From assembly GCA_963802945.1 (NCBI GenBank), contig CAWDKY010000032.1, positions 1 through 64,000 of the forward strand: 64,000 nucleotides of DNA. The letters run 5' to 3'. The stretch is from an uncultured delta proteobacterium (lineage in GTDB: Bacteria; Desulfobacterota; RBG-13-43-22). Below, piece by piece: positions 7,377 to 30,019 of this stretch. A program made the position numbers and the translations under genes. The notes below the pieces were generated by a model, which was not told the DNA's origin, made no database searches, and saw only the letters and a program-made list of their open reading frames with translations. Every line of letters begins with the position of its first letter. Positions within the stretch are counted from its first letter, which is position 1.

Positions 7377-8840
7377 TCAATTACTCCTTGCCTTTTTTCT
7401 CCCGGGCTTTTTATAAAGCGATTCATATTGAGAGGCTGATTTTCCCCAGGAAAAATCCTGATTCATCGCCCTTTGAATCAATCGTTTCCAGCGAGGCTTG
7501 TCCCGATAGACCGATAAGGCCCGCTGAATGGTCTGAAACAATTTTTCCTCTTCATACTCTTTGAATTTAAACCCAGTTCCCTGGTCGGTTTGGGGGTTGT
7601 AATCTTCAACCGTATCTTCCAATCCCCCTACGGCCCTGACGATGGGGATAGTCCCATATTTCAAGGCGTATAATTGATCGAGTCCGCAGGGTTCATAACG
7701 GGAGGGCATGAGCAGGATATCGGCCCCGGCCTGAATCTGGTGGGCCAGGGGCCCGTTATACCCCATTTCCAGACCGATGAAACCCGGATATTTCTCGGCC
7801 ATCTCCAAGGCCCAGACTTGATATTGTTCCAGACCTTGTCCCATTAAGATGACCTCTATTTCCAATTCCATCAACCGGGGGAATATCCGGCTGACCAGGT
7901 CCATACCTTTTCGATCCAGAAGACGGGAAATAATGGCTATTACTGGGAGTTCCCCCTTTTTCTTCAGGTGGAATAAATCCTGAAGATTGGCTTTACAAAC
8001 CTTTTTATTCTCCAGGCTTGGATGGTGTATACGTTGCAGACAACAAAGGATCCCTGGAGGGATCCCAAACCTCGTAATCCACCCCATTCAAAACAGCATA
8101 CAGGTCGGCTTCCCTGGTTTTGAGTACCCCTCCAAGCCAAACCCATTGGCCGGGGTTAGAATCTCTTTCCGGTAATTGGGGCTGACCGTATTCAAGATAT
8201 CGGCGAAAACGATCCCGCCTTTCATCAGGTTCAACTTGCCGAAGAACTCTAAAGCCTTGGGAGTAAAAAGTTCCCATCCCAATCCGGTCAAATGAAGGTC
8301 GTAGTGCCAGAAAAGGCCTTGATATCCCAGGTTGTGAATGGTGAAAAGACTGGCCGTTGATTGGAGAGAGGGGGCGTGGGCATATAGAGTTTTCAAATAA
8401 ACCGGTATTAATCCGGTTTGCCAGTCATTGCTATGGATGATATCGGGGTGAAGGTCCAGGGCCAGACATAATTCCAAAACAGCACGGGAGAAAAAGATAA
8501 AACGCTCGGCGTTGTCCTGGTAGTCTCCGTACTCATTTCCATATAGCCCTTCCCGGTCATAAAGGTCATCCCGGCCGATAAAATAAACCGATACCTTTTC
8601 GGCCAGACTGGATTGATAAATTTGAGCTGTTTTTTTCATCCAGGAGATAGGGACTTCCAGATGAGTATCCAGGAGCTTCAGCGGGGGTTTGATCTTTCTG
8701 GTTTGACGGTACTTGGGAGTGGCTATACATATTTCATGTCCCATTCGGGCCAAGGCCAAGGGCAGGTCGGCCGAAACGTCAGCCAGTCCCCCGGCCCTGG
8801 AAAAAGGACTGATTTCGGAAGTGGCAAAAAGGATCTTCAT
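7377..8840 (-). CDS. glgA: Glycogen synthase, split by two apparent frameshifts (~8128, ~8018)
   Basis: GGLADV, HSNDWQTGL, FTIHNLGYQG, NGVDYEVWDP and PSRYEPCGLDQLYALKYGT are spread over three overlapping ORFs. Confidence 0.9.
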
Positions 8841-10656: not shown

Positions 10657-11588
10657 AGATCTCTTTGATGTAATAAATCGGTTTCCCTTGAGATTCGTGA
10701 TAAGTTCGGACCTGAAGTTCGCCCAAAAGGCCCATGCTGATAAACTGAATGCCGATAAAGATCAAAAGAACGGCTAAAAGCAGAATGGGTCGGTTGGCCA
10801 AAGGAACGGCGAAAAATAATCGTTGAACAGTCAAATAGCAGGCCAAGCCGAAACCGGCCAACCCCGACAAGGATCCCCCAAAGCCCAAAGACATGGATGG
10901 GTCTGGTAGAATAGGTCAATAAAAACTTAACGGTTATCAGATCCAACAGAACTCTTATGGTCCTGGAGATTCCATAGTTAGACCGACCAAATTTGCGGGA
11001 TCGATGGTTAACCGGTATCTCGGCAATGGTCACTCCCATCCAACTGGCAGTAGCCGGGATGAAACGATGCATCTCGCCGTACAATCGGATGTGTTTAGCA
11101 ACCTCCTTTTTAAAGGCCTTCAAGGTGCAACCGTAATCATGGAGCTTCACTCCTGTAACCCAGGAGATCATCTTGTTGGCTATTAGGGAAGGGAGACGTC
11201 TGGAGAAAAAAGGATCCTCCCGTTTTTCCCGCCATCCGCTTACGATGTCGTATCCTTCTCTGATCTTGGCAACCAGCGCAGGAATATCCTTGGGGTCGTT
11301 TTGAAGATCGCCGTCCATGGTTATGATGATATCACCCTTAGCCGAATCAAAACCGGCCGAAAGGGCCGCCGTCTGCCCAAAATTTTTTCTCAGGCGCAGC
11401 ACCTTGATATGATTGCGCCGTATAGCTTCCTCCTTTAAGAGAGCAAAGGTTTCATCCATACTCCCGTCATCGATGGCTAAAATTTCCCACGTCAGTTCCG
11501 TGTCTTGGAGTGCCTGGCACAGTTCATCGAAAAAAACCGAAATATTTCGGGCTTCGTTATAAAAAGGGATAATTACCGACAGGTCCAA
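10628..11588 (-). CDS. GT2 glycosyltransferase (ArnC/GtrB-like); apparent frameshift near 10877
   Basis: IIPFYNE, IDDGS, NFGQTAA, MDGDLQNDP, DYGCTLKA and GEMHRFIP. The C-terminal TM part (SMGLLGE..YHESQGKPIY) is in ORF 10628-10894. Confidence 0.9.
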
Positions 11589-11734: not shown

Positions 11735-12691
11735 TTACTCCCTTATTTTTTGCAGCATGAGACCAAGGGTTTCCTGAACGATGGAATAGGGGTCCTTCTC
11801 TCCCCTTTCGATTTGCTGCACGGCCTTTTCGAGGTTTCCATCTTTTTCCCAAAGTTGGAGAATCAGACCGAGTAATTGTTTTTCCAGCAAAGCGATGAGC
11901 TCTTCTCTGATCCGCACCCCCTGCCAAACCCGTCGACGGTCGGAAGAGGCCAGGAGGTTCAGGCTAGTGTTTACCAACTCGGTTATGCCTTCATTCTGAC
12001 TGGCCACGGTTCGGAGGACAGGTGGCCTGGGGTTGTTCTGGGATGAATCCAACTCCAGCATGGCCTGAATATCAAGAAAAACTTGTTCCGCGCCATCCCG
12101 ATCCGACTTGTTGACCACGAAGATATCAGCGATTTCCATGATGCCGGCCTTAAGGGCCTGTACCCCGTCTCCTTGTCCCGGAACGCAGACAACCAGGACC
12201 AGATCGGCTGCCCGGACCACTTCCACTTCATCCTGCCCTACCCCGACCGTTTCGATGAGCACCAAGTCCTTGCCAAAGGCATCCAGAATCTTGGCTACAT
12301 CCCGGGCCGATTGATTTAGGCCGCCCAAAGCCCCTCTGGTGGCCATGGAACGAATGAAGACCTGGTCGAGATTCCACAGGTCTTTCATCCGGACCCGGTC
12401 ACCCAGAATGGAGCCTCCGGAGAAAGGACTGGATGGGTCCACGGCAATGATACCCACTTTGAAGCCCCTGGAAACTAACTCCCGTGCAATTCCGTTGGTT
12501 AATGTACTCTTGCCCGCACCCGGTGAACCGGTGACTCCGATGAGCCGGGCCTTGCCGGACAGGGAGTAAATCTGCTGCATGGCCTCCATCCAGCCGGGCT
12601 CACGATTTTCAACCCGGCTCACTAAACGGGACAGGGCCCGAACTGATCCCTGGCGCATGTTATCAATTAGCTCCGACCAATCGTTGTTCAT
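11735..12691 (-). CDS. meaB: MeaB/ArgK acyl-CoA mutase-associated GTPase
   Basis: GSPGAGKST, AVDPSSPFSGGSILGDRVRM, ETVGVGQDE and NKSD. Confidence 0.95.
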   Translation of the reverse strand: MNNDWSELIDNMRQGSVRALSRLVSRVENREPGWMEAMQQIYSLSGKARLIGVTGSPGAGKSTLTNGIARELVSRGFKVGIIAVDPSSPFSGGSILGDRVRMKDLWNLDQVFIRSMATRGALGGLNQSARDVAKILDAFGKDLVLIETVGVGQDEVEVVRAADLVLVVCVPGQGDGVQALKAGIMEIADIFVVNKSDRDGAEQVFLDIQAMLELDSSQNNPRPPVLRTVASQNEGITELVNTSLNLLASSDRRRVWQGVRIREELIALLEKQLLGLILQLWEKDGNLEKAVQQIERGEKDPYSIVQETLGLMLQKIRE

Positions 12692-12697
12692 GATTTT

Positions 12698-13885
12698 TCA
12701 AACGACTTTTTCCAGCCGCAAGGCGTCTATTTTTTCCTTTGAGAAGCCCAAAAGTTGCGACAGGATCTCTTCCGTATTTTCTCCCATAACAGGAGGATAA
12801 GTGTATTTAGTCCTCAATTCCGGCGGCGTTCCTGACATTTTGATGGGGTTCGCGGTCTGTCTTATCCGCCCGCCCGAATCATTTTCAATCGTGGCCACCA
12901 TATCCGTTGCCGCCACCTGCGGATCGGCCAGGGCTTTGTCCAATGAATTTACCGGCCCGCTGGGCACATCGGCCTCGGTGAGCAGCTTCATCCATTCGTC
13001 GGTCCCCTTGGTAAGAAAAATCTCCTGAATGACTGCATTTCGCTGTTTTTTATTTTCACGAGTGGCCGGACCTTTAAAAAGGGGCTCCTTGAGCACCTCT
13101 TCCCGGCCCATGGCCTTAAACAAACGGGGATATTTATCCCCCACAGCGGCGATGGCGATATACCCATCCTTGGTCTGAAAGGCCTGATAAACCGGGAGGG
13201 TGCGATGCCCTGAACCTACCGGTCCCGGCACTTCGCCAGTTGCAAAATAAATACTCGCTTCATATGCCAGCAGGGCTAATGTGGCTTCAAAAAGTGAGGT
13301 CTCCACTTTTTGCCCCGCGCCGGTGTGTTCCCGGGCATAAAGGGCGGCCATAATGCCATGAGCGGCAAACATGCCTGCACCCAGATCGCTGATGGCGATT
13401 CCTGCCCTCACCGGCGGCCTGCCTTCCTCACCGGTAATGCTCATAGACCCAGTGATGGCCTGGATGGTCACATCATAAGCCGGCCGGTCCCGATAGGGAC
13501 CGTTGGAACCGAACCCGCTGATAGAACAGCAGATGATACGGGGATTAATATTTTTGAGGGTTTCATAGTCCATTTTTAGCCTCTCGAGTACTCCGGGCCT
13601 GAAATTGTCCAACACGACGTCAGAAATTTTCACCAGATCGTAGAAGATCTCCCTCCCCTTCTCCGTCCGGGTATCCAGAGTGATACTCTTCTTGCTGCGG
13701 TTGATGCTCATATTGTAGGCATCCTGCCCTCTATAGGCAGTCGGTCCGGTGAATCCTCTATTGGCGGCCACAGCCTCGATTTTTATAATCTCCGCACCCA
13801 GATCACCCAAAATCATCGAACCAAAGGGGCCGGCTAAGGCACGGGTGAGATCAAGAACTCTTACAGTAGCTAATGCCGTTTCCAT
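12698..13885 (-). CDS. Family III (CaiB/BaiF) CoA transferase
   Basis: VLDLTRALAGP, NRSKKSITLD, NFRPG, SGFGSNGPY..PAYD and catalytic ISD. Confidence 0.93.
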   Translation of the reverse strand: METALATVRVLDLTRALAGPFGSMILGDLGAEIIKIEAVAANRGFTGPTAYRGQDAYNMSINRSKKSITLDTRTEKGREIFYDLVKISDVVLDNFRPGVLERLKMDYETLKNINPRIICCSISGFGSNGPYRDRPAYDVTIQAITGSMSITGEEGRPPVRAGIAISDLGAGMFAAHGIMAALYAREHTGAGQKVETSLFEATLALLAYEASIYFATGEVPGPVGSGHRTLPVYQAFQTKDGYIAIAAVGDKYPRLFKAMGREEVLKEPLFKGPATRENKKQRNAVIQEIFLTKGTDEWMKLLTEADVPSGPVNSLDKALADPQVAATDMVATIENDSGGRIRQTANPIKMSGTPPELRTKYTYPPVMGENTEEILSQLLGFSKEKIDALRLEKVV

Positions 13886-13917
13886 TAATTAATTTCCTTT
13901 CTATGATGTAATAAAAA

Positions 13918-13975
13918 AAGGTTTAAGGTTCAAGGTGTAAGGTCCAAGGAAAAACCTTAAACCATAAACCATGTA
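13918..13975. repeat. Heptamer array plus inverted array
   Basis: AAGGTTT-AAGGTTC-AAGGTGT-AAGGTCC-AAGGAAAAACCTT-AAACCAT-AAACCAT. Confidence 0.8.
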
Positions 13976-15334
13976 TCATGTACCTTGAACTTTTGGTTGA
14001 ACGCGTTTCACGAACGTTTTTATATTCTTCAAATCTTCCAAGGCCAGGATGGATTTTAGGATCTTATCCGCCCGCTCTCGGCCCATAACGGGGGCGCACA
14101 AATCCATAAATTTAGTTCGCACCTTTTCCTTTTTTATTTCCAGTTCAGGTATTTCATTGAGAATGTCATTAAAACCTTGAAACACCCGGCCGGCATGGGT
14201 CTTCACTTCGACCTTGGCGGCCAGGCCCTGAATGTTTGAATCCAACACAACCTCAATCTTTTTCATCAAATCCCTTATGTCGGGATCATCCACCTTTTCA
14301 TCGGTAAAGGCCTGCATGCCCGTATCGCCTCTCAAAAGGGCATTGGCCACACAATAATAAATACTGAATTTGCCTTCCAGTCCGGTCTTCGGGATCGTTT
14401 TCCCGGCGATGGCTATGGCTGTTTGAGAAGTGCGTACGGTTATGGATTGGATGTCTGGAGCAGTCAAATTATCTTCCTTGACCATGTTTAACACAGCCTC
14501 TATGGCCGAATGGGTACCATGACAAGAGGCATGGTATTTCTGGGCCAGTTTGTCCGTATCCCAGGTTCTTCCCAACGAGGCCACGGCCCTTTCGTTTACC
14601 CGGCCTTTTAAAAGCTGGAAAAAACCGTCCGGCCCTTCCAGGATATCCTCGGCACTGGTGAATTGATCATCGGCCAACAGAACCGCTTCCAATCCCACCT
14701 GGGAGGCCCGGCCGGCATGATAGGGCTTGCACATGGTACCAAACACCCGCTTTAACCCTGAGGCCTGAGTTCCGGCTATGCCCAGGGCATAAACTGTCTG
14801 TTGTTCGTCCAATCCCAACAATCGGGCACAACCGGCGGCTGAGGCCAAACGTCCTATGGTTGAAGTTCCGTGCCACCCGGCCCCGTAATGTTCCACTCCG
14901 GCGCAGACACCGATAACGGCCCCGGCTTTAAGACCAATGATGTAGGCCGTTAAAAAATCAAATCCCGATTTTTCCTTCCACTCGGACAAGGCCAGTAAAC
15001 CTGGGAATAAGGTCACCGAGGGGTGGCCGGAGAATTGGGCCATGGTATCATCATAATCCAGGGCATGCGACATGGCTCCATGAATTAAAGCGGCCTGACT
15101 GACGTTGGTTTTCAGGCCGTGTCCCAGGACCGTGGCCTGAGGATTGCCTCCCATGAGCTCGGCATAATGGATAAGCTTCAATACCAGCGGCTCGTCTTTG
15201 CCGGCCATCCCCACAGCCAGCCAATCCAGAAAGGCTACCTTGGCCTGCTCAAAGCACTCGAAGGGAATGGTTGAAGAATCAATGTCAACAATAAATCGGG
15301 CGATGGTTTTAGTTAGTCCGAGATTTGCTTCCAT
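13976..15334 (-). CDS. MmgE/PrpD family protein
   Basis: HALDYDD, GHPS, GWHGT, KPYHAG, KYHASC and KFSIYY. Confidence 0.92.
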   Translation of the reverse strand: MEANLGLTKTIARFIVDIDSSTIPFECFEQAKVAFLDWLAVGMAGKDEPLVLKLIHYAELMGGNPQATVLGHGLKTNVSQAALIHGAMSHALDYDDTMAQFSGHPSVTLFPGLLALSEWKEKSGFDFLTAYIIGLKAGAVIGVCAGVEHYGAGWHGTSTIGRLASAAGCARLLGLDEQQTVYALGIAGTQASGLKRVFGTMCKPYHAGRASQVGLEAVLLADDQFTSAEDILEGPDGFFQLLKGRVNERAVASLGRTWDTDKLAQKYHASCHGTHSAIEAVLNMVKEDNLTAPDIQSITVRTSQTAIAIAGKTIPKTGLEGKFSIYYCVANALLRGDTGMQAFTDEKVDDPDIRDLMKKIEVVLDSNIQGLAAKVEVKTHAGRVFQGFNDILNEIPELEIKKEKVRTKFMDLCAPVMGRERADKILKSILALEDLKNIKTFVKRVQPKVQGT

Positions 15335-15357
15335 CCTTTCACTCCTCTAAAAAGAAA

Positions 15358-15468
15358 ATAGGGTACATGGTACACGGTGCACGGTACAGGGTATAAGGTC
15401 TAAGGTTCACGGTATATGGTATATGGTTTAAGGTTTTCCTTACACCTTGTACCTTAAACCTTGGACCT
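15358..15468. repeat. Heptamer array plus inverted array
   Basis: About 10 units of N(A/C/T)GGTNN, then AAGGTTTTCCTT, then ACCTT-type inverted units. Confidence 0.8.
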
Positions 15469-15469
15469 A

Positions 15470-16267
15470 TTATCTGCCTTTAAATTCCGGTTTACGTTTT
15501 TGCATAAAGGCCTTCTGGGCTTCTTTCAGATCCTCACTGTTGAAGGCCTGGCCTATAAGTTTGTTGGCCTCCCGGCGGTCCTCGTCCGACAATTTGAACG
15601 ATTGAGAAAGCAGATTCAGAATTCTTTTCGTTCCTTTTACGGATAAAGGGGAATTACCGGCAATTTCTTCGGCCATTACATAGACAAAGGATTCCAATTC
15701 CTGCCTGGGCAGCAGGTAATGTACCAGCCCCATTTCCTTGGCTCTCCCCGCAGGATAATAGCGTCCGGTAAAAAAAAGCTCCCGGGTATTGGAAATTCCG
15801 ATGATCTGAATAAAACGCATCAACCCCGCCAGTTGATAAATCAAACCCAATTTAGCCGGGGGCATGCCCATTCGTATATCGTCGGCCCCGATGCGCAGAT
15901 CGCAGCAGACGGCCAATTCACAGCCCGCACCAAAGGCATACCCATTCAACAGAGCAATAACAGGATAGGGGAAGTTGATGACGCTGTTCAAGGCAAGCTC
16001 CAGGGGGTTCTGTTCTCTCAACTGTTCCCGGGTTCTTGGGGAAACCTCGGTGGGAATGGCACCGATATCATACCCCGATGAAAAGGCTTGGTCACCGGCA
16101 CCGCGTATGACCACTGCTCGCACTGTGTCCTCTTGAATAAAATCTTCCAGGGCCTGGTGCATTTTGATCAACATGTCCGGAGAAAGGGAGTTTCGTTTTT
16201 CAGGACGGTTTATGACCAGGGTTCCCACCTGGTCTTTTATCTCAACCAATAAAGTCTCTGTGCTCAC
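15470..16267 (-). CDS. Crotonase-superfamily enzyme (enoyl-CoA hydratase/ScpB-like)
   Basis: NRPEKRNS, FSSGYDI, PVIALLNG, GAGCEL, MPPAKLGLIY and KRKPEFKGR. Confidence 0.9.
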   Translation of the reverse strand: MSTETLLVEIKDQVGTLVINRPEKRNSLSPDMLIKMHQALEDFIQEDTVRAVVIRGAGDQAFSSGYDIGAIPTEVSPRTREQLREQNPLELALNSVINFPYPVIALLNGYAFGAGCELAVCCDLRIGADDIRMGMPPAKLGLIYQLAGLMRFIQIIGISNTRELFFTGRYYPAGRAKEMGLVHYLLPRQELESFVYVMAEEIAGNSPLSVKGTKRILNLLSQSFKLSDEDRREANKLIGQAFNSEDLKEAQKAFMQKRKPEFKGR

Positions 16268-16289
16268 TTGGATACCTCCATAATTTTGA

Positions 16290-16392
16290 AAATAGGGTAC
16301 AAGGTTCAGGGTTTAAGGTCCAAGGTAAAACCTCAAACCCTATACCGTGAACCTTGTACCCTATACCTTGAACCTTAAACCCTGCACTGTGT
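16290..16392. repeat. Heptamer array plus inverted array
   Basis: AGGGTAC-AAGGTTC-AGGGTTT-AAGGTCC-AAGGTAAAACCTC followed by about 8 ACC(T/C)-type units. Confidence 0.8.
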
Positions 16393-16397
16393 CTATC

Positions 16398-16802
16398 TCA
16401 CCCGTTGAGATGGACATGCTTCTTGATCGCCTCCACAATCTGATCTATGCTGGCTCCGGAGGTAAAGATCTCCGCCACCCCCATTTCCTTCAGGGCTGGG
16501 ATATCTTCATCTGGAATAACTCCCCCCAGCACCAGCACTACATCTTCGCCCCCTTGGGCCTTTAGTCCTTCAGCCACCCGCCGGGTCAGGGCCAGATGAG
16601 CCCCGGAAAGAATAGACAGACCCACCACGTCCACATCCTCCTGTATGGCCGCCCGAACAATGGAATCGGTGGTCTGCCTCAGACCTGAATAGATCACTTC
16701 AAAACCAGCGTCGCGTAGAGAATAGGCAATCACTTTGGCCCCTCTGTCGTGACCGTCCAGGCCGGGCTTGGCCACAAGTACCCTGATTCTTTTTTCAGTC
16801 AT
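16398..16802 (-). CDS. Cobalamin-binding small subunit of an acyl-CoA mutase
   Basis: [10 protein letters not shown] (DxHxxG), SILSGAH and GGVIP. Confidence 0.95.
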
Positions 16803-16827
16803 GGCTGTTCTCCTTTAAAACAATATT

Positions 16828-16892
16828 ATGGTGCAAGGTGCACGGTATAGGGTTTAAGGTTTTCCCTTGGACCTATCCTTTACCCCTTGAAT
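16828..16892. repeat. Heptamer array plus inverted array
   Basis: ATGGTGC-AAGGTGC-ACGGTAT-AGGGTTT-AAGGTTTTCCCTT-GGACCT. Confidence 0.75.
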
Positions 16893-16936
16893 CTCTTTCA
16901 TGCTAAACTGCGCCCGCATAAAACGGACATAGGGAT

Positions 16937-18727
16937 TCAATCGAAAATGGGATCGCATTCGATCAACTCCACAGGAATCCCGGTCAGGCGCTCAATGTCT
17001 TTGTATACCCTTCCGGTCAGATCCCTTCCCCATCCGCTCAAATGAAAAGGAGAGGAGGGGATGACGATCAAGTCAGGCAACACCCGATCTTCATTTAAAA
17101 AGTCTTTTACCGCGGCGATAAAATCTTCCACCACCAACAAATCACCCATAAAGATATTTCCCCCCAAGTATTGATTGGACGGAACACGCAGATGGAAATG
17201 CACATCAGCCGGGAAAAGGGTTTCCCGGATCCGTTTTTCTAATATGGGTTTTACCAGGGTGGAGGTCAAAACCAGTATCTCCCGAGCCTTCTCTGAAGCA
17301 ATCATGGTTTGCAGTTGTTCCATCCAACTTAAGGGGATCCCGGCCGATGGGAAGACACATCCGGCAAAGGGGACTGTTCGAGGGTCAAAGGGGTATTCGA
17401 AGTGATTCAAATCCATGTCCAGATCCAACAATCCACCAGACCGCTCCACGATCAGCGAAACTTTTTCCAGGCTGCTGTTTTGGACCATCCCTAATAGGGA
17501 AAGGGCCTGGGTCCGGTTTTTGATCCGAAGGCCGTTGATGCCGATTAACCGGTCTCCGAGTACCAAACCTGCTCTGGCCGCCGGAGAATGCTTAATCACC
17601 CCAATCAGACGTGGAGTGTCAATGGCCTCCGGGTCCAAGTATTCTTCATATAAACCGGGACGAATGATCAGGGGACAGTCCGTAACGGTCCTGAGGTGCT
17701 GAATCTCGATCTTCAACCGGTTCCAAACCTCTTCCCGATCAAAAAGGGTCTTTTTGGAAAACCAACGCGAATACCCCGGCAGGCTGATCTGAATATAGGC
17801 TGGGCTAAAGCGGGCTGAAAAAGCAACGGTTGGGGCAAGGTCCTCCAGCATTTCTTTAAAGGAAGGGAAAGGCCAGGGCACAATGACCACCGAATAGGGA
17901 ATATGGGTGGACCCAAGTTCGGCCAAGGCATTGAGGGCCACCTCTGGTTTATGGTCTCCCATAAGCCAGCGACGACGATTGGGCGAACTGGTATTTAAGG
18001 AGAGATCTATAAGCAAAGGCTGATATTGAGACAAGTCCCGAATCATCTCTGGAGTGAGAAGGGATCCGTTGGTCGGGATCCGAAAGACTTCGTCGGTCTT
18101 TCGGCGAAGGGCAGCCAGTATCTCCAGGATATAGGGATGGGTAAGCATCTCACAGGGACTGCCCGTATCGGGGAACAGACTTAACTTGGACCCTGGGACG
18201 TAATAAGCAATGCGGGTCAAAATTTCCTGATATTCTGCTTCGGCCTTTCGGGAAGTCTCTTTGAAGACCGGCGGGCTACCGAGGTTGTAACAAAAACGAC
18301 ACTTCAGGTTGCAGCGGGTGGCTGCCTGGGCCAGGATGTCGGCAGCCCCGCCGCCGGGTTTCAGCCATTGATCAGGTCTTTTCAAGCGAAAACCGTCTAT
18401 TCGAACTGGCTTTCCCTGATATTCGAAATCCACGATGGAAAGGATCAATTCCATCCATTGGCGGATATAAGGAAGGCGCGGTTCATAAATGTCCAGACGA
18501 TCAATGTATTGGGCAGACTCCTGGTTGACATCAGGATAAAGGGGATGGTCCATATCGGGTTCGTCCAACAGACGATATCCGTCTATGTGGACCCTTTTAC
18601 CCTTCCAGGTGAGAGTCAACAGGTCCAGGATGGCCCGAAGGTGCCCGGCCAACATTTCTTGTAGGTTCAAAGGACCAGGGCGAGAAACATCTCCCACCGG
18701 GTACCTGAAAAGGTACTCCATATTCAT
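16937..18727 (-). CDS. Radical SAM protein with PDZ and C-terminal DUF512-like domain
   Basis: CNLKCRFC (CxxxCxxC), PTNGSLL, PDZ (HSPAARAGLVLGDRLIGING), and DUF512-like NQYLGGNIFMGDLLVVEDF..DLIVIP..GIPVELI. Start placed at ATG 18727 after AAGGAA, which avoids overlap with the mutase. Confidence 0.82.
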   Translation of the reverse strand: MNMEYLFRYPVGDVSRPGPLNLQEMLAGHLRAILDLLTLTWKGKRVHIDGYRLLDEPDMDHPLYPDVNQESAQYIDRLDIYEPRLPYIRQWMELILSIVDFEYQGKPVRIDGFRLKRPDQWLKPGGGAADILAQAATRCNLKCRFCYNLGSPPVFKETSRKAEAEYQEILTRIAYYVPGSKLSLFPDTGSPCEMLTHPYILEILAALRRKTDEVFRIPTNGSLLTPEMIRDLSQYQPLLIDLSLNTSSPNRRRWLMGDHKPEVALNALAELGSTHIPYSVVIVPWPFPSFKEMLEDLAPTVAFSARFSPAYIQISLPGYSRWFSKKTLFDREEVWNRLKIEIQHLRTVTDCPLIIRPGLYEEYLDPEAIDTPRLIGVIKHSPAARAGLVLGDRLIGINGLRIKNRTQALSLLGMVQNSSLEKVSLIVERSGGLLDLDMDLNHFEYPFDPRTVPFAGCVFPSAGIPLSWMEQLQTMIASEKAREILVLTSTLVKPILEKRIRETLFPADVHFHLRVPSNQYLGGNIFMGDLLVVEDFIAAVKDFLNEDRVLPDLIVIPSSPFHLSGWGRDLTGRVYKDIERLTGIPVELIECDPIFD

Positions 18728-18767
18728 TTGGGAATTCCTTATGATGTTAGGTTCCAACCCGGGTTCT

Positions 18768-20516
18768 TTAGAAAATGGAAGGGGGATCATATTCTCCGAA
18801 AACATCCCTGAGTACATCGCAAACCTCTTGTAAGGTGACGTAAGCCTTGGCGCAAGCAATCAGGTGACTGACCAGGTTTACTTTCTCTTCCGTTGCTTGT
18901 TTTTTTAACTCGATCAATAGCCTCTGAACCTCCGAGTTATCCCTTTTCTTCTTGACCTCTTTTAAATTGGCGATCTGTTTCTCCTCCGCCCGGGCACGTC
19001 GATCGGGATCATAAGGGTGCGGGACCAGGCGTGTGGTCTGAACCTCAAGTTCGTGTTCGCCGGTAAAACAGTTCACTCCCACCACCAGGATTTCACCGCT
19101 GGCGATTTTTTTCTGATGTTCATAGGCGTTTCGAGTCACCTCCCGTTGAACATAGCCCTGTTCAATGGCGGCCACGATTCCTCCCATCTTATCCAGTTTG
19201 TCCAATTCGGCCCAGGCCTCTCTCTCAATCTCATCGGTCGTGGCTTCCATATAATAAGAACCGGCGAAAGGGTCGGTCACTTCCATCAATCTGGCCTCGC
19301 AGGACAGGATTCGACTGACGTCCTGAGATAATTGCGAAGCCTCCCGGCTCCATCCCAGTCCGAGTGGTTCGTCATATGGCGGGAAGGCCGATGGTGGTCC
19401 CCCGGATAAGGCCCCGGCCACGGCCCCAAGAACAGCCCTGGTCAGGTTATTCAGCGGTCGCTGTTTGGTGGTGCTCGAAGGCCCGATATGGGCGGTCATC
19501 TGTTCCCTGAGCAGCATACTGCGGGGATTCTTGGCCCCGAAACGCTCTTTGAGAATTCGGGCATACATACGGCGGGCAGCCCTCTGAAAGGCTATTTCCT
19601 GCAAGAACTCCATACTCCCGCCCATGGCGTTGAAGGTGAAACGGGGTGCAAAGGCGTCCACCTCCAAACCGGCATCAATCCCTTCCTGCAGATAGGCGCA
19701 GGCAATGGCCATACTATAAGCCAGGTCCTGAACACGCGTGGCCCCGGCTTCCCGGATGTGATAACCTCCCATGCTGGTAATATTCATACGCGGCATATAT
19801 TGGTTGATAAAGGTCAGGGTGTCCCGGAAAAAACGCATGGCCGATTTGGGTGGGAAAATATAGGCCCCCCGGGCGATATATTCTTTCAAGATATCATTTT
19901 GAGGGGTGGCCTGCAGTTTGTCCAAAGGGATACCCCGCTTTTCGGCCAAGGCCGCATACATGGCGATCAGATAAATAGCCGGGGCATTGATGGTGAAATT
20001 GGAAGCGATGCGGTCCAGGTTAAGGTCCCCCTGATAAGGTTCGTAAATTATCTCCAGGTCTCGAAGGGTATCGATGGCTACTCCCACCTTGCCCACCTCT
20101 CCGGCCATCAAGGGATTGTCGGAGTCGTAGCCGCATTGCGTCACCAGGTCCATAGCCAGATTGGGGCCTTGCCGGGCGCCCCGGGAAATAGTCTGTTTAT
20201 AATAGTCCCGGGTGTCTTCCGGCGTTCCGTATCCGGAATAGCCTGAGGCCCGGGTCAACCCTGAGCCGGAACGGCTACTCCTAGCCGCTGTCCTGGAAAC
20301 ACCGGCCCGGGGATCGAATGGATAGATGTTGGCGGTAAACGGATACTCTCCCGGAAAGCCGACCTGGTTAAGAAAATCAAAGTCCTGGATATCTAGAGGC
20401 GTATAGAATCGGCTGGGAGATTCGTTAAAAATTGGAAAACGCTCCAGGGCCTTCTTCACCGTCCGATCCTGCCATTGCTGTCTTCTCTGACGGATTTTTT
20501 CATATTGATCGCTCAT
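18768..20516 (-). CDS. Divergent acyl-CoA mutase large (substrate-binding) subunit, methylmalonyl-CoA mutase family
   Basis: GFPGEYPFT, GYDSD..GEVGKVGVAIDT, FTINAPA, QNDILKEYIARG, GYHIREAG and DPFAGSYY. Confidence 0.93.
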   Translation of the reverse strand: MSDQYEKIRQRRQQWQDRTVKKALERFPIFNESPSRFYTPLDIQDFDFLNQVGFPGEYPFTANIYPFDPRAGVSRTAARSSRSGSGLTRASGYSGYGTPEDTRDYYKQTISRGARQGPNLAMDLVTQCGYDSDNPLMAGEVGKVGVAIDTLRDLEIIYEPYQGDLNLDRIASNFTINAPAIYLIAMYAALAEKRGIPLDKLQATPQNDILKEYIARGAYIFPPKSAMRFFRDTLTFINQYMPRMNITSMGGYHIREAGATRVQDLAYSMAIACAYLQEGIDAGLEVDAFAPRFTFNAMGGSMEFLQEIAFQRAARRMYARILKERFGAKNPRSMLLREQMTAHIGPSSTTKQRPLNNLTRAVLGAVAGALSGGPPSAFPPYDEPLGLGWSREASQLSQDVSRILSCEARLMEVTDPFAGSYYMEATTDEIEREAWAELDKLDKMGGIVAAIEQGYVQREVTRNAYEHQKKIASGEILVVGVNCFTGEHELEVQTTRLVPHPYDPDRRARAEEKQIANLKEVKKKRDNSEVQRLLIELKKQATEEKVNLVSHLIACAKAYVTLQEVCDVLRDVFGEYDPPSIF

Positions 20517-20559
20517 CTTTTCCCCTCCGAGTAAAAAATTCTTGCTTGATATTATATTG

Positions 20560-20636
20560 ACGGTTCAAGTTTAAGGTCTAGGCTTTTACCCTTGCACCCT
20601 ACACCATGCACCGTGTACCTTACACCTTGTATGCCT
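20560..20636. repeat. Heptamer array plus inverted array
   Basis: ACGGTTC-AAGTTT-AAGGTCT-AGGCTTTTACCCTT followed by GCACCCT-ACACCAT-GCACCGT-GTACCTT-ACACCTT. Confidence 0.75.
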
Positions 20637-21371
20637 TCATGTGTTGACTCTCACCAACTCAGCCACACCTTGATAGACATCTCCAGGGAAATGGGTGACC
20701 GCCATCTCCAGGGCCCGACCCGACCTGGAAAAATAAATCCGCTTAACGACCAGAAGTGGAGCCCCTTTTTTAACGCCCATAATCCTTGCCAAAGAGGGAT
20801 CGGCCATCGAGGCTGAGATGATCTGCCGACCGCGTTTTACGGTTTCCAAAATTTCCCTCTCAACCCTCTCGATGAATAGCGGGCGGGACGGATCCTTCAA
20901 TCGAATATTTTTCCCGATCTCTTCCGGGACAAAGGCCTGGAAAAAGGCCTGACGCTCACTATAAAGATACCGAAGACCTTCAAAGAGATAAACTTTTTCC
21001 TTTGGGCTAAGTTCCATATCCTTTACAATCCCAGGGTCTGGATTGATCAATCTCTTAGAATGAAGCTTCAAAAGGGTTTGAGCCCCCATTTGAAAAAGGT
21101 CTTCCACCATTCCATAGAGTCTGAACTTTATAGGATTTTCTTTGCGAAAGGAGACAAAAGTACCTCGACCCTGCTCTCGGCGAATGAGGTCGTCACTTTC
21201 AAGAGAAAGGAGGGCCTGTCTTACGGTGATCCGGCTGACCCCAAATTCCTGACACAACTCTTTTTCGGTAGGCACGGCTTGATCGGTTTTGAGTTTGCCG
21301 GAAAGGATCCGTTTTCGGAGAACCTTTTCCAGTTGATAGTAAAGGGGAACAGGATTTTTCTTTAATTTCAT
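20637..21371 (-). CDS. GntR-family regulator, HutC/UTRA subfamily
   Basis: PLYYQL, PTEKELCQEFGVSRITVRQAL and QGRGTFV, with a C-terminal UTRA-like domain. Confidence 0.93.
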   Translation of the reverse strand: MKLKKNPVPLYYQLEKVLRKRILSGKLKTDQAVPTEKELCQEFGVSRITVRQALLSLESDDLIRREQGRGTFVSFRKENPIKFRLYGMVEDLFQMGAQTLLKLHSKRLINPDPGIVKDMELSPKEKVYLFEGLRYLYSERQAFFQAFVPEEIGKNIRLKDPSRPLFIERVEREILETVKRGRQIISASMADPSLARIMGVKKGAPLLVVKRIYFSRSGRALEMAVTHFPGDVYQGVAELVRVNT

Positions 21372-21623: not shown

Positions 21624-22157
21624 TTATTTGGGAAAGATCACTCTTCGCCAAGAGATTATCCATAGAGGAATCAACAAAACACTTTCCACCGAAAAGCAAA
21701 ATAGGGCCTGAGTCCAAAAGTCAGGATGCCCCCAAGTCCGAAGCACACGGGGAAAGATGGGAACAGAAGACAAAAAATAAGTTTCAGAAACAGGCCAAAA
21801 CATTGGAAATCCAGAAGGCGCTTCTGTGAAAAAATCCAAAAAGAGGTGTGAAAATACAAGGATAAAAATAAAACCGCTCGTTTTTAGAAAAGACCGAGTC
21901 CATCCTAAAAAGGCAATTAAAAATCCGGCCATCAAAGATAAGCCAACTGCCGTCCCCAGACTGTGAAAAAATCCATGATGAAACCGGCCGGGATTCCCCA
22001 AAAAGAGCCCCGGAATAAAATCCAGGTCAGGAGCAAGAGCCCCTAAAACAACCAAACCATAAAGCAGCCAGGTATTTATTCGGGAAGTAACCGGTCGTGG
22101 ATAACAGAGGTTAAATAGACTCAGACCGACCAAGGCGTGTCCATAAGGAGAAGCCAT
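21624..22157 (-). CDS. Membrane-bound metal-dependent hydrolase (YdjM/DUF457-like)
   Basis: GHAL, APDLD, HHGFFHS, SHLFLD and FWP motifs. Confidence 0.85.
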   Translation of the reverse strand: MASPYGHALVGLSLFNLCYPRPVTSRINTWLLYGLVVLGALAPDLDFIPGLFLGNPGRFHHGFFHSLGTAVGLSLMAGFLIAFLGWTRSFLKTSGFIFILVFSHLFLDFFTEAPSGFPMFWPVSETYFLSSVPIFPRVLRTWGHPDFWTQALFCFSVESVLLIPLWIISWRRVIFPK

Positions 22158-22160
22158 ATT

Positions 22161-23186
22161 TCAGGCAACCTCCCCCCCTCCCTCACCCTCCCCCTCGGAA
22201 GGGGGAGGGAAGGGGTGGGGGTGGTCATCCGATTCGGGGTTGTTTTCAGATGATCCTTTGAGATAAAAATAAGCCCCTGGAAGCCCAACGAGGATATTTC
22301 CCAAGTTGGAAGCAAATCCGAGGGTAAAGGCCACAGTAGTCGAAATTCCAAAAAAAGAAAATAAAGCGATAAACAGCCCTTCTTGAATCCCAAAGCCGCT
22401 CAGGGAAACAGGTATCCGGGCAAAAAATTGGGCAATGGGGATGATGGGGACCAAATAAAGGAAGGGCACGGAAAGGCCCAAAGTCAAAACTAAAAAGTAA
22501 ATGGTCAAAATAGGCACCAGCTGTTCCCCAAAGGACCACAAGAAAAATTTTCCCAAGGCTTTAGGCTGAATTCGATAGAGTACGAAGGACGAAGTTATTT
22601 TGGAGATCTTGTCGGCCCAGGGAAGCTTGGCCATGAAGTTTTTTAAGGCCGTCGGTCCGCCCCCGCGCATAAGGAGGACAAGAAATAAAACACCGGCGGA
22701 CAGGAAGGTTAACAGGAGCCATAAAAGGAACCTGGGAAAATCGGGGACGAAAAAGAACAGCAGGGGAATGGCCATAAGGGCCATTATGGCCGAAGAAAGA
22801 AATCCGAGAAACCTTTCCATGATAATGGATGAGATCACATCGACCCCTGTTTGGGTGTTCCGGGAAAGCTCATAGGCGCGGATGGCATCCCCTCCCAGGG
22901 AGGTGGGAAATAAATTGCCTAAAAATGTCCCTTTAAAATAGACCACGATGAGTTTTTCCCAGGAACAGGAAATCGCTTTGGCATCGAGGAGTATCTTCCA
23001 TTTGTAAGCCATGACAAAACGGTCAAAAAAATTAAGGGCGAAATATCCGATCAGGTATGGCCAGCGAATATTTTTCAGGAGCTCGGCCAATTCCCTCTGG
23101 TTGACAAAACGGAGCAGAAATAAAATGAGAAGGAGACTGACCAGCAGCTTCCAGAAATAGGAATTCAGATTCGACTTGTTCATCAA
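22161..23186 (-). CDS. Lysylphosphatidylglycerol-synthase TM / flippase-like membrane protein
   Basis: Multi-TM, with PTSLGGDAIR, SIIMERFLG and IPVSLSGFGIQEG. Confidence 0.85.
   Translation of the reverse strand: MMNKSNLNSYFWKLLVSLLLILFLLRFVNQRELAELLKNIRWPYLIGYFALNFFDRFVMAYKWKILLDAKAISCSWEKLIVVYFKGTFLGNLFPTSLGGDAIRAYELSRNTQTGVDVISSIIMERFLGFLSSAIMALMAIPLLFFFVPDFPRFLLWLLLTFLSAGVLFLVLLMRGGGPTALKNFMAKLPWADKISKITSSFVLYRIQPKALGKFFLWSFGEQLVPILTIYFLVLTLGLSVPFLYLVPIIPIAQFFARIPVSLSGFGIQEGLFIALFSFFGISTTVAFTLGFASNLGNILVGLPGAYFYLKGSSENNPESDDHPHPFPPPSEGEGEGGGEVA
22172..22224. repeat. C-rich/G-rich REP-like palindrome within the 3' end of the CDS
   Basis: CCCTCACCCTCCCCCTCGGAAGGGGGAGGGAAGGGG. Near copies at 26312-26364 and 53622-53668. 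Confidence 0.8.
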
Positions 23187-23225
23187 AACCTAATGGAATA
23201 GTAGATTAATTATTTCAACCGGCGG

Positions 23226-25085
23226 TCAGGCGAAAAATCGTTGATGCCACAACCCCAAATTCAACAAGGCCCAGAGGATATGATTGTGATTATGAGTCCG
23301 GGCCATGTGCTGTTCAATAAGCTTCCCTACAAAAGGGCCATTCATATAATCTCTTATAACCGGGGACTCGTTCAACACAGTGATCAAGGGCTCTTTAAGC
23401 CCTTCACGCAGCCAATTCTTAATAGGCAGACTATAACCCTGTTTCCCCCGCCAGACGATCTGATCCGGCAGAAGGCCGCTTAAGGCCTCTCGGAAAATGG
23501 CCTTGGTGCGAAATCCTTTTAATTTCCAATCTCCGGGCAGAGAGGCCGTGAATTCCACAAAACGGTGATCCAGAAAGGGGACACGGATCTCCAGGGCATG
23601 GGCCATACTCATCTTATCGACCTTCATCAGGACCGAGTCGGGCATCATGAAACGTAAATCAACATAAAGCTCCTGATCCAGTCGATCAATCCCGTCCCAG
23701 TTTGATTTAAACGTCCTTACAGGGGCAAAGGGATCCATCTTAACCCGTCCTTTGAACAGATCGTTATACAACCGGTCATCCTGCGTGGCCGAAGAAAAAT
23801 ATTGCCACCTTAGGTGCCCCCCATCCAAAGGTAGATGGGAGCCTTCCACAAATCGTTTCACGATATTGATCAGTCCTTTTTTTTGGGGCTGATCCGGAAG
23901 GGCCTCGATGATCGGAAAAATCATTTTTTCTCTGATCAGTGAAGGCAGGATGCGGTAAACTTGATCGGCCTTACTGGCCTTAAAGCGGTCATAGCCGGCA
24001 AATATTTCATCCCCGCCTTCTCCGGAAAGACAAACGGTCACATATTTTTTGGCCTCCCGGCAAACCAAATAAAGGGGTAAGGCCGAAAGATCGGTCATGG
24101 GTTCATCGAGATGCCAGACCGTCTCTTCCAGGTCATTCAAGGTAACTTCAGGAATCATCAGAACCGTATGGTCGGTATCAAATTGTTTGGCCACCAATTC
24201 GGCATAAGGCAGCTCGCTGAAAGAAGGATCCGAATAACCGATGGAAAAGGTCCTTAAAGGATTCACCCCCAACCGTCGCATCAAGGCCACCAGGGTGCTG
24301 GAATCCAATCCCCCGGAGAGAAAAACACCCAAAGGAACATCACTGATCAGGTGTTTTTGAACGGTTTCCTGAAGCAGGCGACGCAGTTCAACGACCGCTT
24401 CCTCCTGGGTCAGCGAAGTGCCGGGCCGGTTGAGATCCCAATAAGGTTTTAGGGTCAATTCATTACCGGATAACCTCAGGTAGTGACCTGGAGGAAGTTT
24501 ATTAATCCCCTCAAACATGGTCAAGGGGCTGGGTACGAATTCATAGCCCAAGTAATAATACAAGGCCTGAAGATCAACGCCTCGTGGTATTTCCGGGATT
24601 TGTAACAGGGCTTTGATCTCCGAAGCAAAGGCCAGCCGTCCTTTTTGGAAATAATAATAAAGGGGCTTTATTCCCAAACGGTCCCGGGCGACAAGGAGCT
24701 TCTGTTGACTTTGGTCCCAAAGCCCGAAAGCGAACATGCCTTGCAGACGGTCCAAACATTTTTCCGCCCATTCCTCATAGGCGTGAATAATGACCTCGGA
24801 GTCGGCTTTGCTTCGGAAATGATGTCCTTTATCTTCCAATTCCTGACGGAGTTCTAAAAAATTATAAATTTCCCCGTTAAAAACCAGTTGAATGGTTCCG
24901 TCTTCATTGGGCATAGGCTGACTGCCCTGCTCGGACAGGTCAATGATGGACAGGCGGCGGAATCCCATGGTAATCCCCGGTTCAGTAAAAACCCCTTCCT
25001 GGTCCGGCCCGCGATGTTTTATTATTTGGCACAGCCGCTCTCCAAGAGAGCGATCCGGCCAGTTAAATCCTACAATCCCGCACAC
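23226..25085 (-). CDS. asnB: Asparagine synthase (glutamine-hydrolysing)-family amidotransferase
   Basis: N-terminal CGI, HRGPD, RRLSIID, NGEIYN, LSGGLDSS, SGEGGDE and RVPFLD. Confidence 0.93.
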   Translation of the reverse strand: MCGIVGFNWPDRSLGERLCQIIKHRGPDQEGVFTEPGITMGFRRLSIIDLSEQGSQPMPNEDGTIQLVFNGEIYNFLELRQELEDKGHHFRSKADSEVIIHAYEEWAEKCLDRLQGMFAFGLWDQSQQKLLVARDRLGIKPLYYYFQKGRLAFASEIKALLQIPEIPRGVDLQALYYYLGYEFVPSPLTMFEGINKLPPGHYLRLSGNELTLKPYWDLNRPGTSLTQEEAVVELRRLLQETVQKHLISDVPLGVFLSGGLDSSTLVALMRRLGVNPLRTFSIGYSDPSFSELPYAELVAKQFDTDHTVLMIPEVTLNDLEETVWHLDEPMTDLSALPLYLVCREAKKYVTVCLSGEGGDEIFAGYDRFKASKADQVYRILPSLIREKMIFPIIEALPDQPQKKGLINIVKRFVEGSHLPLDGGHLRWQYFSSATQDDRLYNDLFKGRVKMDPFAPVRTFKSNWDGIDRLDQELYVDLRFMMPDSVLMKVDKMSMAHALEIRVPFLDHRFVEFTASLPGDWKLKGFRTKAIFREALSGLLPDQIVWRGKQGYSLPIKNWLREGLKEPLITVLNESPVIRDYMNGPFVGKLIEQHMARTHNHNHILWALLNLGLWHQRFFA

Positions 25086-25109
25086 GATCCTGCTCCTTTA
25101 GTTCGAAAA

Positions 25110-26256: not shown

Positions 26257-26311
26257 GAATTGCCCCTCCTTTTCCTTTTATATCACTTTACAATTGGGAA
26301 AAAAATCACAT

Positions 26312-26364
26312 CCCCCCACCCTCACCCTCCCCCTCAGAGGGGGGAGGGCAAGGGAGGGGGTGGG
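26312..26364. repeat. C-rich/G-rich REP-like palindrome
   Basis: CCCCCCACCCTCACCCTCCCCCTCAGAGGGGGGAGGGCAAGGGAGGGGGTGGG. Confidence 0.8.
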
Positions 26365-30015: not shown

Positions 30016-30019
30016 AGTC

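Follow-up and report, generated by a model that had tools for sequence, protein, structure and literature searches.

Eight consecutive open reading frames (ORFs) on the minus strand at positions 11735-21371, within a window of 64,000 nucleotides that is the whole stretch of DNA analysed from an uncultured delta proteobacterium (genome G000, 100% complete by markers with 6.7% contamination), are interpreted here, with a probability of roughly 0.55, as a catabolic module under GntR control that acts on a 2-substituted succinate of alkyl or methyl type, homologous to the downstream half of the gene islands for anaerobic alkane degradation by fumarate addition (ass/mas islands, after alkylsuccinate and (1-methylalkyl)succinate synthase). 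We infer the substrate class, the order of the steps and every function suggested for the radical SAM protein from what is observed, namely gene content, protein families, active-site residues, synteny and co-occurrence. A sequence-only reading of the same DNA had called the pathway undescribed, a claim that is not supported: the same set is described for ass/mas islands in the accessible portions of two papers (PMC13685792, PMC7180275), and it is linked to the glycyl radical enzyme (GRE) MasD at the loci L018, L023 and L026 and in the genome G384. What is new is the tie between a cobalamin-type radical SAM gene and one mutase subclade, together with the broad spread of MasD-free forms of the module. 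Loci compared, sampled genomes and contigs of G000 are designated by L, G and C numbers, respectively; rSAM is the radical SAM gene, mutL and mutS are the genes of the large and small mutase subunits, and ech, prpD, caiB, CT and NMO are genes for a crotonase, an MmgE/PrpD protein, a family III CoA-transferase, a carboxyl transferase and an enoyl-reductase-like protein.

Gene content and proposed steps

All eight ORFs are intact, and Pfam and NCBIfam profile searches assign their products to the families that the sequence-only reading had named. The large, substrate-binding subunit of the acyl-CoA mutase (mutL, 18768-20516, 582 amino acids [aa]; PF01642, 9e-135, 450.5 bits) and the small B12-binding subunit (mutS, 16398-16802, 134 aa; PF02310, 2.6e-25, 89 bits) supply the TIM-barrel domain and the B12-binding domain with DxHxxG motif of an adenosylcobalamin (AdoCbl)-dependent acyl-CoA mutase; the motif reads DGHDRG and is invariant in alignment A4. 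The solved structures nearest to the large subunit are the 2-hydroxyisobutyryl-CoA mutase (HCM) subunit HcmA (4R3U, 347 bits) and the methylmalonyl-CoA mutases (MCM) of human (2XIJ, 309 bits) and P. shermanii (1REQ, 270 bits). HCM and the window mutase are alike in having separate large and small subunits, but HcmA has Ile and Gln where the window mutase has the MCM-type Tyr and Arg. In a phmmer alignment, Y93, R216 and a Y-H pair of the large subunit align with Tyr89, Arg207 and Tyr243-His244 of 1REQ_A, which we take to be the residues that bind the substrate carboxylate in MCM. As the same Tyr/Arg/Tyr-His set is presumably to be expected in enzymes of ethylmalonyl-CoA mutase type, these residues mark a carboxylated substrate rather than MCM itself, and their retention implies that the substrate of the window mutase should carry a free carboxylate. 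The small subunit scores 168.8 bits on TIGR00640 (cut-off 57.45), whereas on the NCBIfam MCM equivalog NF006944 (cut-off 876) the large subunit reaches 389.7 bits and the small subunit 127.4. Directly before the active-site Tyr the large subunit has an insertion of about 20 residues, with YSGYG where canonical mutases have RQYAGF; the insertion is not present in the canonical mutase on contig C53 of G000, nor in L042 and L051. The G-protein chaperone of B12 mutases (MeaB/ArgK; 11735-12691, 318 aa; PF03308, 2.7e-80) passes TIGR00750 with 297.7 bits (cut-off 240.75).

The other enzymes fit the activate-rearrange-decarboxylate logic that the sequence-only reading had proposed. The crotonase-fold protein (ech, 15470-16267, 265 aa; ECH_1, 2.7e-50) looks like a methylmalonyl-CoA decarboxylase (MMCD): it shares 29% identity with E. 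coli ScpB, carries Ala in place of the second Glu of hydratases, and retains the equivalent of ScpB Tyr140, which is conserved in 7 of 8 homologues; Tyr140, His66 and the second Glu are assumed to be the catalytic positions. The MmgE/PrpD-family protein (prpD, 13976-15334, 452 aa, with both Pfam domains) is closest among solved structures to B. subtilis IRG1 (7BRA, 2.4e-53) and to an iminodisuccinate (IDS) epimerase (2HP0, 6.2e-50), followed by cis-aconitate decarboxylases (CAD; about 1e-30) and by PrpD (1SZQ, 2.2e-11), and it scores 36.5-61.4 bits on the equivalogs of the 2-methylcitrate dehydratase PrpD, below their NCBIfam cut-offs of 458-950. The earlier suggestion that this protein may perform an isomerisation therefore suits its kinship with IRG1/CAD and IDS epimerase rather than with PrpD dehydratases; epimerisation at C2 of the succinate, or a decarboxylation or isomerisation, is possible. 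The CoA-transferase (caiB, 12698-13885, 395 aa; PF02515, 2e-121, 405.9 bits over residues 5-370) belongs to family III (CaiB/BaiF). It is nearest to dicarboxylate CoA-transferases: among NCBIfam models it scores highest on those for succinate-glutarate and succinyl-CoA:mesaconate CoA-transferases, with no equivalog cut-off reached, and its relatives in the Protein Data Bank are a formyl-CoA-transferase-like protein (10UH), SUGCT (9BR7) and then the benzylsuccinate CoA-transferase BbsF (9FN0, 1e-42), with racemases of AMACR type more distant (7e-31). The regulator (gntR, 20637-21371, 244 aa) is of GntR/HutC type (GntR, 1.5e-20; UTRA, 7.3e-19) and reaches no NCBIfam equivalog cut-off.

In the proposed pathway, the family III CoA-transferase would form the CoA thioester of a dicarboxylate, and the IRG1/IDS-epimerase-like MmgE/PrpD protein would act on the free acid, most likely by epimerising C2 of the succinate. 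The AdoCbl mutase MutL/MutS, its cofactor loading aided by MeaB, would then shift the thioester carbon, yielding a substituted malonyl-CoA from which the MMCD-like crotonase would remove CO2 to leave a branched acyl-CoA for beta-oxidation. The radical SAM protein would act on the mutase or its corrinoid and not on each substrate molecule. As a compact operon of eight genes with its own regulator, the set is handy for expressing and assaying the steps that follow fumarate addition.

Conservation, alkane islands and rival pathways

The sequence-only reading had made its proposal depend on the conservation of the gene set in other genomes, and the set is indeed found together in three phyla, Thermodesulfobacteriota, Bacillota and Chloroflexota. 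The comparison comprises a genome-contig set (51 loci found with rSAM as the query plus the window, n=52) and a metagenome set (80 loci, of which 37 are at least 9 kb long) that shares some contigs with it; both were seeded with rSAM, and so they show the company that rSAM keeps and not the converse. The rSAM loci span Thermodesulfobacteriota, Bacillota (Peptococcaceae, Desulfotomaculum, Desulfovirgula), Chloroflexota/Dehalococcoidia, Nitrospinota and others, and tblastn searches and all-against-all clustering find the partner genes near rSAM in shuffled order. Counts in the genome set are 34 for mutL, 31 for ech, 23 each for mutS and caiB, 22 for prpD and 14 for meaB; further neighbours are CT (11 loci), NMO (9), AMP-ligase (8), acyl-CoA dehydrogenase (ACAD; 8), the TRAP transporter genes DctQM (6) and DctP (5) and electron-transfer flavoprotein genes (ETF; 6 and 5), and gntR lies 5' of mutL in 10 loci. 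Among the 37 long metagenome loci, mutL and ech occur in 27 each, mutS in 21, prpD in 19, caiB in 13, CT and DctQM in 11 each, and MasD in one. The Dehalococcoidia-type loci L017, L031 and L055 have ACAD and ETF genes before rSAM and hydantoinase A/B genes (acetone-carboxylase/oxoprolinase-like) after it, a neighbourhood of a different flavour from the operon of Thermodesulfobacteriota.

The connection to alkane degradation comes from gene neighbourhoods and from the mutase. A GRE of 832-844 aa is encoded inside the clusters of L018, L023 and L026, and that of L018, which lies beside mutL-rSAM-mutS, scores 1272.7 bits against the solved (1-methylalkyl)succinate synthase MasD (9O8U), compared to 480 against benzylsuccinate synthase and at most 327 against other GREs. 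In G384, a genome of the same genus as G000, the contig that includes L010 carries a mas part (MasD, small subunit, a second mutL, AMP-ligase, NMO, ech, a second prpD, activase, AAA5, VWA), and gntR, mutL, rSAM, mutS, ech and prpD stand directly downstream of it. In L022 and L028 rSAM is flanked by GRE activases and AAA5/VWA pairs, and in L051 by a VWA gene; the source of L051, Peptococcaceae SCADC, is described in the available part of one paper as a putative fumarate-adding alkane degrader (PMC4161757). Genes for a MoxR-like AAA5 ATPase and a VWA protein and a conserved ORF of 112-142 aa without Pfam domain (cluster c28) are found beside rSAM or MasD in L022, L028, L051, L010, L023, L072 and L065, and are probably the AssE/AssF-type genes of ass islands. 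In a sample of 401 genomes of the phylum, with MasD called at 65% identity or more and the mutase clade at E<=1e-150, MasD is present in 16 genomes; the mutase clade is present in all 16 of these, compared with 41 of the whole 401, and the mutase and MasD genes are often no more than a few kb apart.

Published inventories of ass/mas islands, as far as their accessible sections go, list a B12 mutase, ArgK/MeaB, MmgE/PrpD, enoyl-CoA hydratases plus a carboxyl transferase, and treat the mutase set as a candidate for the carbon-skeleton rearrangement after fumarate addition (PMC13685792, PMC7180275); cluster 1 of Desulfoglaeba ALDC, for example, has mutase subunits, an LAO/AO (ArgK-type) protein and MmgE/PrpD (PMC7180275). 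The steps after fumarate addition (epimerisation, rearrangement, decarboxylation) are still labelled "putative" (PMC6776118; bioRxiv 10.1101/2023.08.24.554723). The agreement of these inventories with the operon implies that its gene set corresponds to a downstream part of alkane islands that had been noticed before and whose biochemistry is putative. Both the window and the islands of Desulfatibacillum alkenivorans AK-01, Desulfoglaeba alkanexedens ALDC and Smithella family-B have the mutase subunits (there called "hcmAB-like" or "methylmalonyl-CoA" mutase), ArgK/MeaB, MmgE/PrpD and enoyl-CoA hydratases, with CT in relatives of the window, and the mutase insertion is common to both. Unlike the islands, G000 has no MasD/AssA, activase or AssE-type genes, and the operon has a GntR gene of its own; the term "radical SAM" occurs 0 times in the accessible text of PMC13685792 and PMC7180275, whereas the window has rSAM between its mutase genes.

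Several observations weigh against the reading as a module for a 2-substituted succinate. MasD has no match in G000 at E<=1e-120, and it is absent from 23 of the 27 rSAM-positive genomes; with MasD in only 4 of these genomes and a few loci, the designation "alkylsuccinate" is an extrapolation. The window operon contains no transporter gene. The crotonase scores 194.9 bits on the MMCD model NF008506 (cut-off 257), which is its second-best NCBIfam model after the generic PRK06127 (224.7 bits, cut-off 291), and the position of ScpB His66 is Tyr in the window protein and Ala or Gly in other phyla. The MmgE/PrpD protein, finally, is as near to enzymes of the cis-aconitate decarboxylase group as to the epimerase. 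Because G000 has no MasD, the substrate probably comes from outside or by another route, and not from alkanes activated in the cell; the retention of the operon where alkane activation is missing and the TRAP transporters encoded at related loci suggest a role in the use of substituted succinates that come from outside or by another route. Endogenous alkane activation by the four PFL-like enzymes of G000 was considered and rejected, as these belong by NCBIfam to the PFL2/dehydratase group and are 28-33% identical to MasD. They are encoded at C53:153737-155617, C24:73312-75135, C32:136261-138198 and C34:93197-94660, with an activase near each; none reaches an NCBIfam equivalog cut-off, and one is on the contig of the window, about 115 kb away.

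The gene families of the set could also suggest an ordinary Sbm-type succinate-to-propionate cycle, in which a plain MCM is followed by an MMCD crotonase and the CoA-transferase recycles CoA from propionyl-CoA onto succinate. The E. coli scpA-argK-scpB-scpC operon likewise combines a mutase, a G-protein chaperone, a crotonase-fold decarboxylase and a CoA-transferase; the equivalents of Tyr89, Arg207 and His244 are present in the window mutase, MeaB is above its equivalog cut-off, and the crotonase shares the active-site pattern of ScpB at two of three positions, including loss of the second Glu, besides its identity to ScpB and the second rank of the MMCD model. Such a cycle is nevertheless improbable, given that the mutase falls far short of the MCM equivalog cut-off and has beside its substrate Tyr an insertion that the canonical MCMs compared do not have, that G000 already holds a canonical MCM beside transcarboxylase genes, and that the clade of the window mutase accompanies MasD in every MasD-bearing genome sampled. 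In addition, the window mutase is split, its CoA-transferase is of family III and not of ScpC type, and the E. coli operon has no GntR, MmgE/PrpD or radical SAM genes, the last two absences being as the sequence-only reading had stated. A route for C5/C6 acids of plants or fungi is also conceivable, in which the IRG1-like protein decarboxylates an aconitate-type acid to itaconate (or isomerises itaconate, mesaconate or citraconate) and, following a reduction and the transfer of CoA, methylsuccinyl-CoA is turned by rearrangement into ethylmalonyl-CoA, whose decarboxylation leaves butyryl-CoA. It would account for IRG1/CAD as the best solved relatives of the MmgE/PrpD protein, for the resemblance of the CoA-transferase to the mesaconate and glutarate enzymes, for the recurrence of NMO-type, TRAP, ACAD and ETF genes in related loci, and for the absence of MasD from most loci; it is judged unlikely in view of the absence of a reductase gene from the window operon, the nearly equal score of IDS epimerase, and the constancy of the same MmgE/PrpD family in alkane islands, where aconitate has no obvious role.

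That the operon is a functionless remnant of an alkane island after loss of MasD has a very low probability. The G384 operon directly 3' of a full mas cluster, the lack of a MasD match in the window genome, and the mobility and repeated loss of ass modules in Smithella (according to the available part of PMC13685792) are what would be expected of a remnant, but the eight ORFs are intact in an assembly in which other genes are frameshifted, their products are 83-96% identical to those of L006 and 67-90% identical to those of other relatives, and MasD-free versions with TRAP transporters are common. Among the 10 genomes sampled from the genus besides G000, the operon is present in 6, and both the mutase and rSAM are absent from the other 4; MasD occurs only in G384, and so is absent from 5 of the 6 operon-bearing genus-mates as well as from G000. 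The module being far commoner without MasD than with it (of 37 long metagenome loci, 1 has MasD and 11 have TRAP transporter genes) suggests that many anaerobes of sediment, wetland and groundwater may consume substituted succinates made by others, which, if true, would change how alkylsuccinates are read as "signature metabolites".

The radical SAM protein and its mutase subclade

The rSAM gene (16937-18727, 596 aa; Pfam Radical_SAM, PDZ_6 and a weak DUF512 match) most likely starts at the ATG at 18727, which has an AAGGA motif upstream; the long ORF extends to 18859, and a public gene call has 617 aa, which would put the start at 18790. Its product has an N-terminal extension of about 130 aa with two "DGFRL" repeats, a radical SAM core at residues 137-293 (PF04055, 49.7 bits), a PDZ domain at 377-438 and a DUF512-like domain at 470-553. 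The CX3CX2C motif at C139/C143/C146 is the single cluster motif in alignment A1 of 36 homologues (from which L030 was omitted for internal stops, as L046 was from alignment A2), with C139 and C143 invariant and C146 at least 90% conserved, and the C-terminal domain has an invariant GGNIFMGD motif. The description "DUF512-type" in the sequence-only reading finds support in the family: 34 of the 35 members match PF04459 with E<=1, the best of them at 1e-6, and the family profile matches pfDUF512 (9CG2) with E values of 9.9e-6 (A1) and 0.011 (A2) and csDUF512 (9CG1) with 0.039. It is qualified by the window protein's own score (16.4 bits full-length and 20.2 bits for the C-terminal 150 aa, below the PF04459 cut-off of 25) and by the domain order, which is RS-PDZ-DUF512 instead of the canonical PDZ-RS-DUF512. 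An N-x-FFG(G)NI...LL motif is common to rSAM, 9CG1 and 9CG2, and the conserved L530 of rSAM appears to align with the LL of pfDUF512 near L286, in the region of the lower-axial Leu, with an uncertain numbering offset. The rSAM protein shares the CX3CX2C motif and a homologous C-terminal domain with csDUF512 and pfDUF512, and a PDZ domain with csDUF512; it is set apart from them by the N-terminal repeat domain and by the absence, after the cluster motif in A1, of the DDD motif on the cluster loop of csDUF512. On these matches it is classed as a divergent DUF512 class-2 enzyme of putatively cobalamin-binding type. Its nearest Atlas families are DUF512 radical SAM proteins, and a search of 1.84 billion representatives gives its own family 386 clusters (50% identity, E<=1e-30), the members seen being all from metagenomes or metagenome-assembled genomes (MAGs) under generic names only. 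Ten relatives of 696-747 aa have N-terminal extensions without a Pfam domain.

The structurally closest characterised enzyme is Mmp10, a protein-modifying enzyme that acts on methyl-CoM reductase. One study reports, in its accessible part, that DUF512 itself is a domain that binds cobalamin: the four proteins it examined take up cobalamin and make methylcobalamin (MeCbl) from SAM along with some 5'-deoxyadenosine, which its authors take as radical methylase behaviour, and csDUF512 as isolated contains 25% hydroxocobalamin (OHCbl), 37% MeCbl and 38% AdoCbl (PMC11659888). Reviews, in the portions available, give the reactions of DUF512 enzymes as unknown (PMC13331322, PMC12931638). A literature search found no paper linking rSAM to this pathway, although a gene of this kind might appear in supplementary tables to the ass-island papers; the papers searched do not mention MasD-free forms of the module either.

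The association of rSAM with the mutase is visible in gene order, in genome content and in the MutL tree. Of 48 loci with a full match, 25 have the rSAM gene at most 400 bp from mutL or mutS, as do 28 of 80 metagenome loci, and the gene lies between mutL and mutS in all Thermodesulfobacteriota versions. In L013 (5102-9229) and L028 (7938-11503) it stands beside mutS (followed by ech-meaB or caiB) with no mutL in the available flanks of 5-10 kb, so that rSAM may partner with the B12-binding subunit itself. The mutase clade is present in 23 of the 27 rSAM-positive genomes (G000 included), and the four that lack it either are fragmented MAGs or carry rSAM at the end of a contig; among five further genomes with a mutase-free rSAM locus, four have a 53-64% identical mutL elsewhere and the fifth has only a 32% identical radical SAM protein. 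The MutL tree (quick maximum likelihood, 44 rows, SH-aLRT support) was made without ORFs shorter than 500 aa (fragments L009, L035, L046 and L049) and without two short high-scoring segment pairs (HSPs) from C53, the mutL and mutS sequences of the high-GC loci L067-L070 being taken from tblastn HSPs. The insertion-bearing mutases form one clade (support 100) that splits into A and B. Clade A (8 rows, support 100) consists of MasD-adjacent copies from rSAM-free genomes; clade B (29 rows, support 87) contains every rSAM-linked MutL, from three phyla and including the window, as well as the MasD-adjacent copy of G384 and two rows from incomplete genomes in which no rSAM was found. The window mutase thus shares the insertion and the wider clade with the mutases of ass/mas islands, within B, the sister of the MasD-adjacent A. 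A search for subclade-specific residues in MutL and MutS yielded few fixed differences (e.g. DGHDRG versus DGHERG) and none that is interpretable. The association of rSAM with this mutase subclade is strong, but it is not a requirement across the wider family.

Two kinds of function may be compared for rSAM. Its gene position, the company of MeaB and MutS, the PDZ domain, with its hint of a protein or peptide as ligand, and the Mmp10 precedent point tentatively to action on the mutase or its corrinoid, by one-off modification, cofactor tailoring or re-adenosylation. As a partner dedicated to a single subclade of substituted-succinyl-CoA mutases, rSAM could conceivably carry out an Mmp10-like radical methylation of MutL or MutS, or rebuild AdoCbl; in the boldest form of this idea, a 5'-deoxyadenosyl radical derived from SAM may combine with cob(II)alamin of the mutase to give AdoCbl, an ATP-independent route to coenzyme B12. 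Alternatively, rSAM may be a pathway enzyme, since most cobalamin-dependent radical SAM enzymes C-methylate or radically transform small-molecule substrates. The radical-methylase-like products of the four DUF512 proteins (in the accessible part of PMC11659888) and the nine loci in which rSAM adjoins the crotonase gene and not the mutase are in line with such a function. It is rather unlikely, however, considering that the gene lies between those of the mutase subunits in Thermodesulfobacteriota and beside mutS alone in L013 and L028, that the PDZ domain hints at a ligand that is a protein or peptide, and that on general bioenergetic grounds an expenditure of two SAM per substrate would fit poorly with low-energy anaerobic catabolism; per-turnover methylation is unlikely because SAM would be spent stoichiometrically.

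Other results count against a role directed at the mutase. The rSAM gene is missing from 18 of the 41 mutase-clade genomes and from 12 of the 16 MasD-bearing genomes, which implies that the mutase family can work without it, and a paralogous gntR-mutL-mutS-caiB-NMO-ech cluster on contig C26 of G000 has no rSAM gene. Clade B has only 87% SH-aLRT support, and its loci were gathered by searching with rSAM itself. No fusion of rSAM to a mutase was found, there being no longer homologue at E<=1e-10, which is weak evidence. Recognition of the MutL tail by the PDZ domain was considered, as rSAM-linked MutL proteins end in S/T/A-x-Phi, and rejected, as the canonical C53 mutase ends in -VSFL and the hydrophobic tail is thus not specific. 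A role as substitute for a PduO-type adenosyltransferase is likewise not supported, since 19 of the 27 rSAM-positive genomes carry PF01923 and there is no anticorrelation; PF01923 has no match in G000 or in 13 other genomes of its family, with or without rSAM, and G000 has a CobA-type enzyme. If rSAM does act on the mutase, this would be the first biological role assigned to a radical SAM enzyme of the DUF512 class; a subfamily tied to a B12 mutase and MeaB in any case provides a concrete context for the question of what DUF512 enzymes do, as raised in the available part of a 2025 review (PMC13331322).

There are three mutase loci in G000: the window operon, the canonical locus on C53 and the paralogous cluster on C26. 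The C53 locus (L059, about 164960-171380) encodes a canonical methylmalonyl-CoA pathway with transcarboxylase 5S/12S genes, carboxyl transferase, mutL and mutS; its HMGL-like 5S subunit is fused to a Cache/PDC sensor-like domain, and its carboxyl transferase and mutL genes are both split by frameshifts. The C26 cluster (about 21680-30190; L058 6678-15188) has the insertion in its mutase and is without rSAM and PrpD. Its products are 57% (gntR), 49% (mutL, frameshift-split), 56% (mutS), 43% (caiB) and 33% (crotonase) identical to those of the window, and it also holds genes for NMO-like, transglutaminase-like and FAD_binding_2 flavoprotein products.

Operon layout, repeats and genomic setting

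The spacers within the eight-gene set are 6-135 bp long, and co-transcription as an operon is plausible. A promoter-like pattern (-35 TAGACC, 18-nt spacer, -10 TATAAT; 10/12 matches to consensus, a pattern match only) is found on the minus strand at 20580-20551 in the gap between gntR and mutL, and therefore gntR may be a separate transcript. A terminator-like hairpin followed by a T-run, likewise a pattern match only, lies at 11537-11550 (minus strand), 185 bp past meaB.

Every larger spacer of the operon carries one palindromic GGT-periodic element. A search for repeats (families D1-D5, inverted repeats I1-I13) finds a hairpin of 7-nt GGT-periodic repeats at 16288-16392, 3' of mutS, and similar elements at 13912-13993, 15351-15470, 16815-16897 and 20569-20637. 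The hairpin of the first is about 35 bp long and folds as RNA with -52.8 kcal/mol (z -6.25). There are about 34 such elements genome-wide versus 1 in a reversed control, and the densest 10-kb bin lies in the operon; an Rfam search with them returned no family, the hairpin match being sub-threshold only. They may be hairpins that stabilise or process mRNA, or a small repeat family.

The glycogen synthase gene of the window (7377-8840) consists of two ORFs broken at a TGA, and its motif LNGVDYEVWDP continues in the third frame over the ORF junction, a pattern of homopolymer indels that suggests indel errors in the assembly of G000. These indels and the frameshifts on C26 and C53 call for caution with "pseudogenes" of this genome. 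The genes that neighbour the operon are unrelated to it (glycosyltransferases, glycogen synthase, Asn synthase and membrane proteins), and chemotaxis and signalling genes lie further out. Among these, also unrelated to the operon, are a chemotaxis cluster at 32380-40781 (CheA, a methyl-accepting chemotaxis protein with PAS, CheB and neighbours) and a gene at 45546-48599 for a multi-PAS protein of HD-GYP type with 1017 aa.

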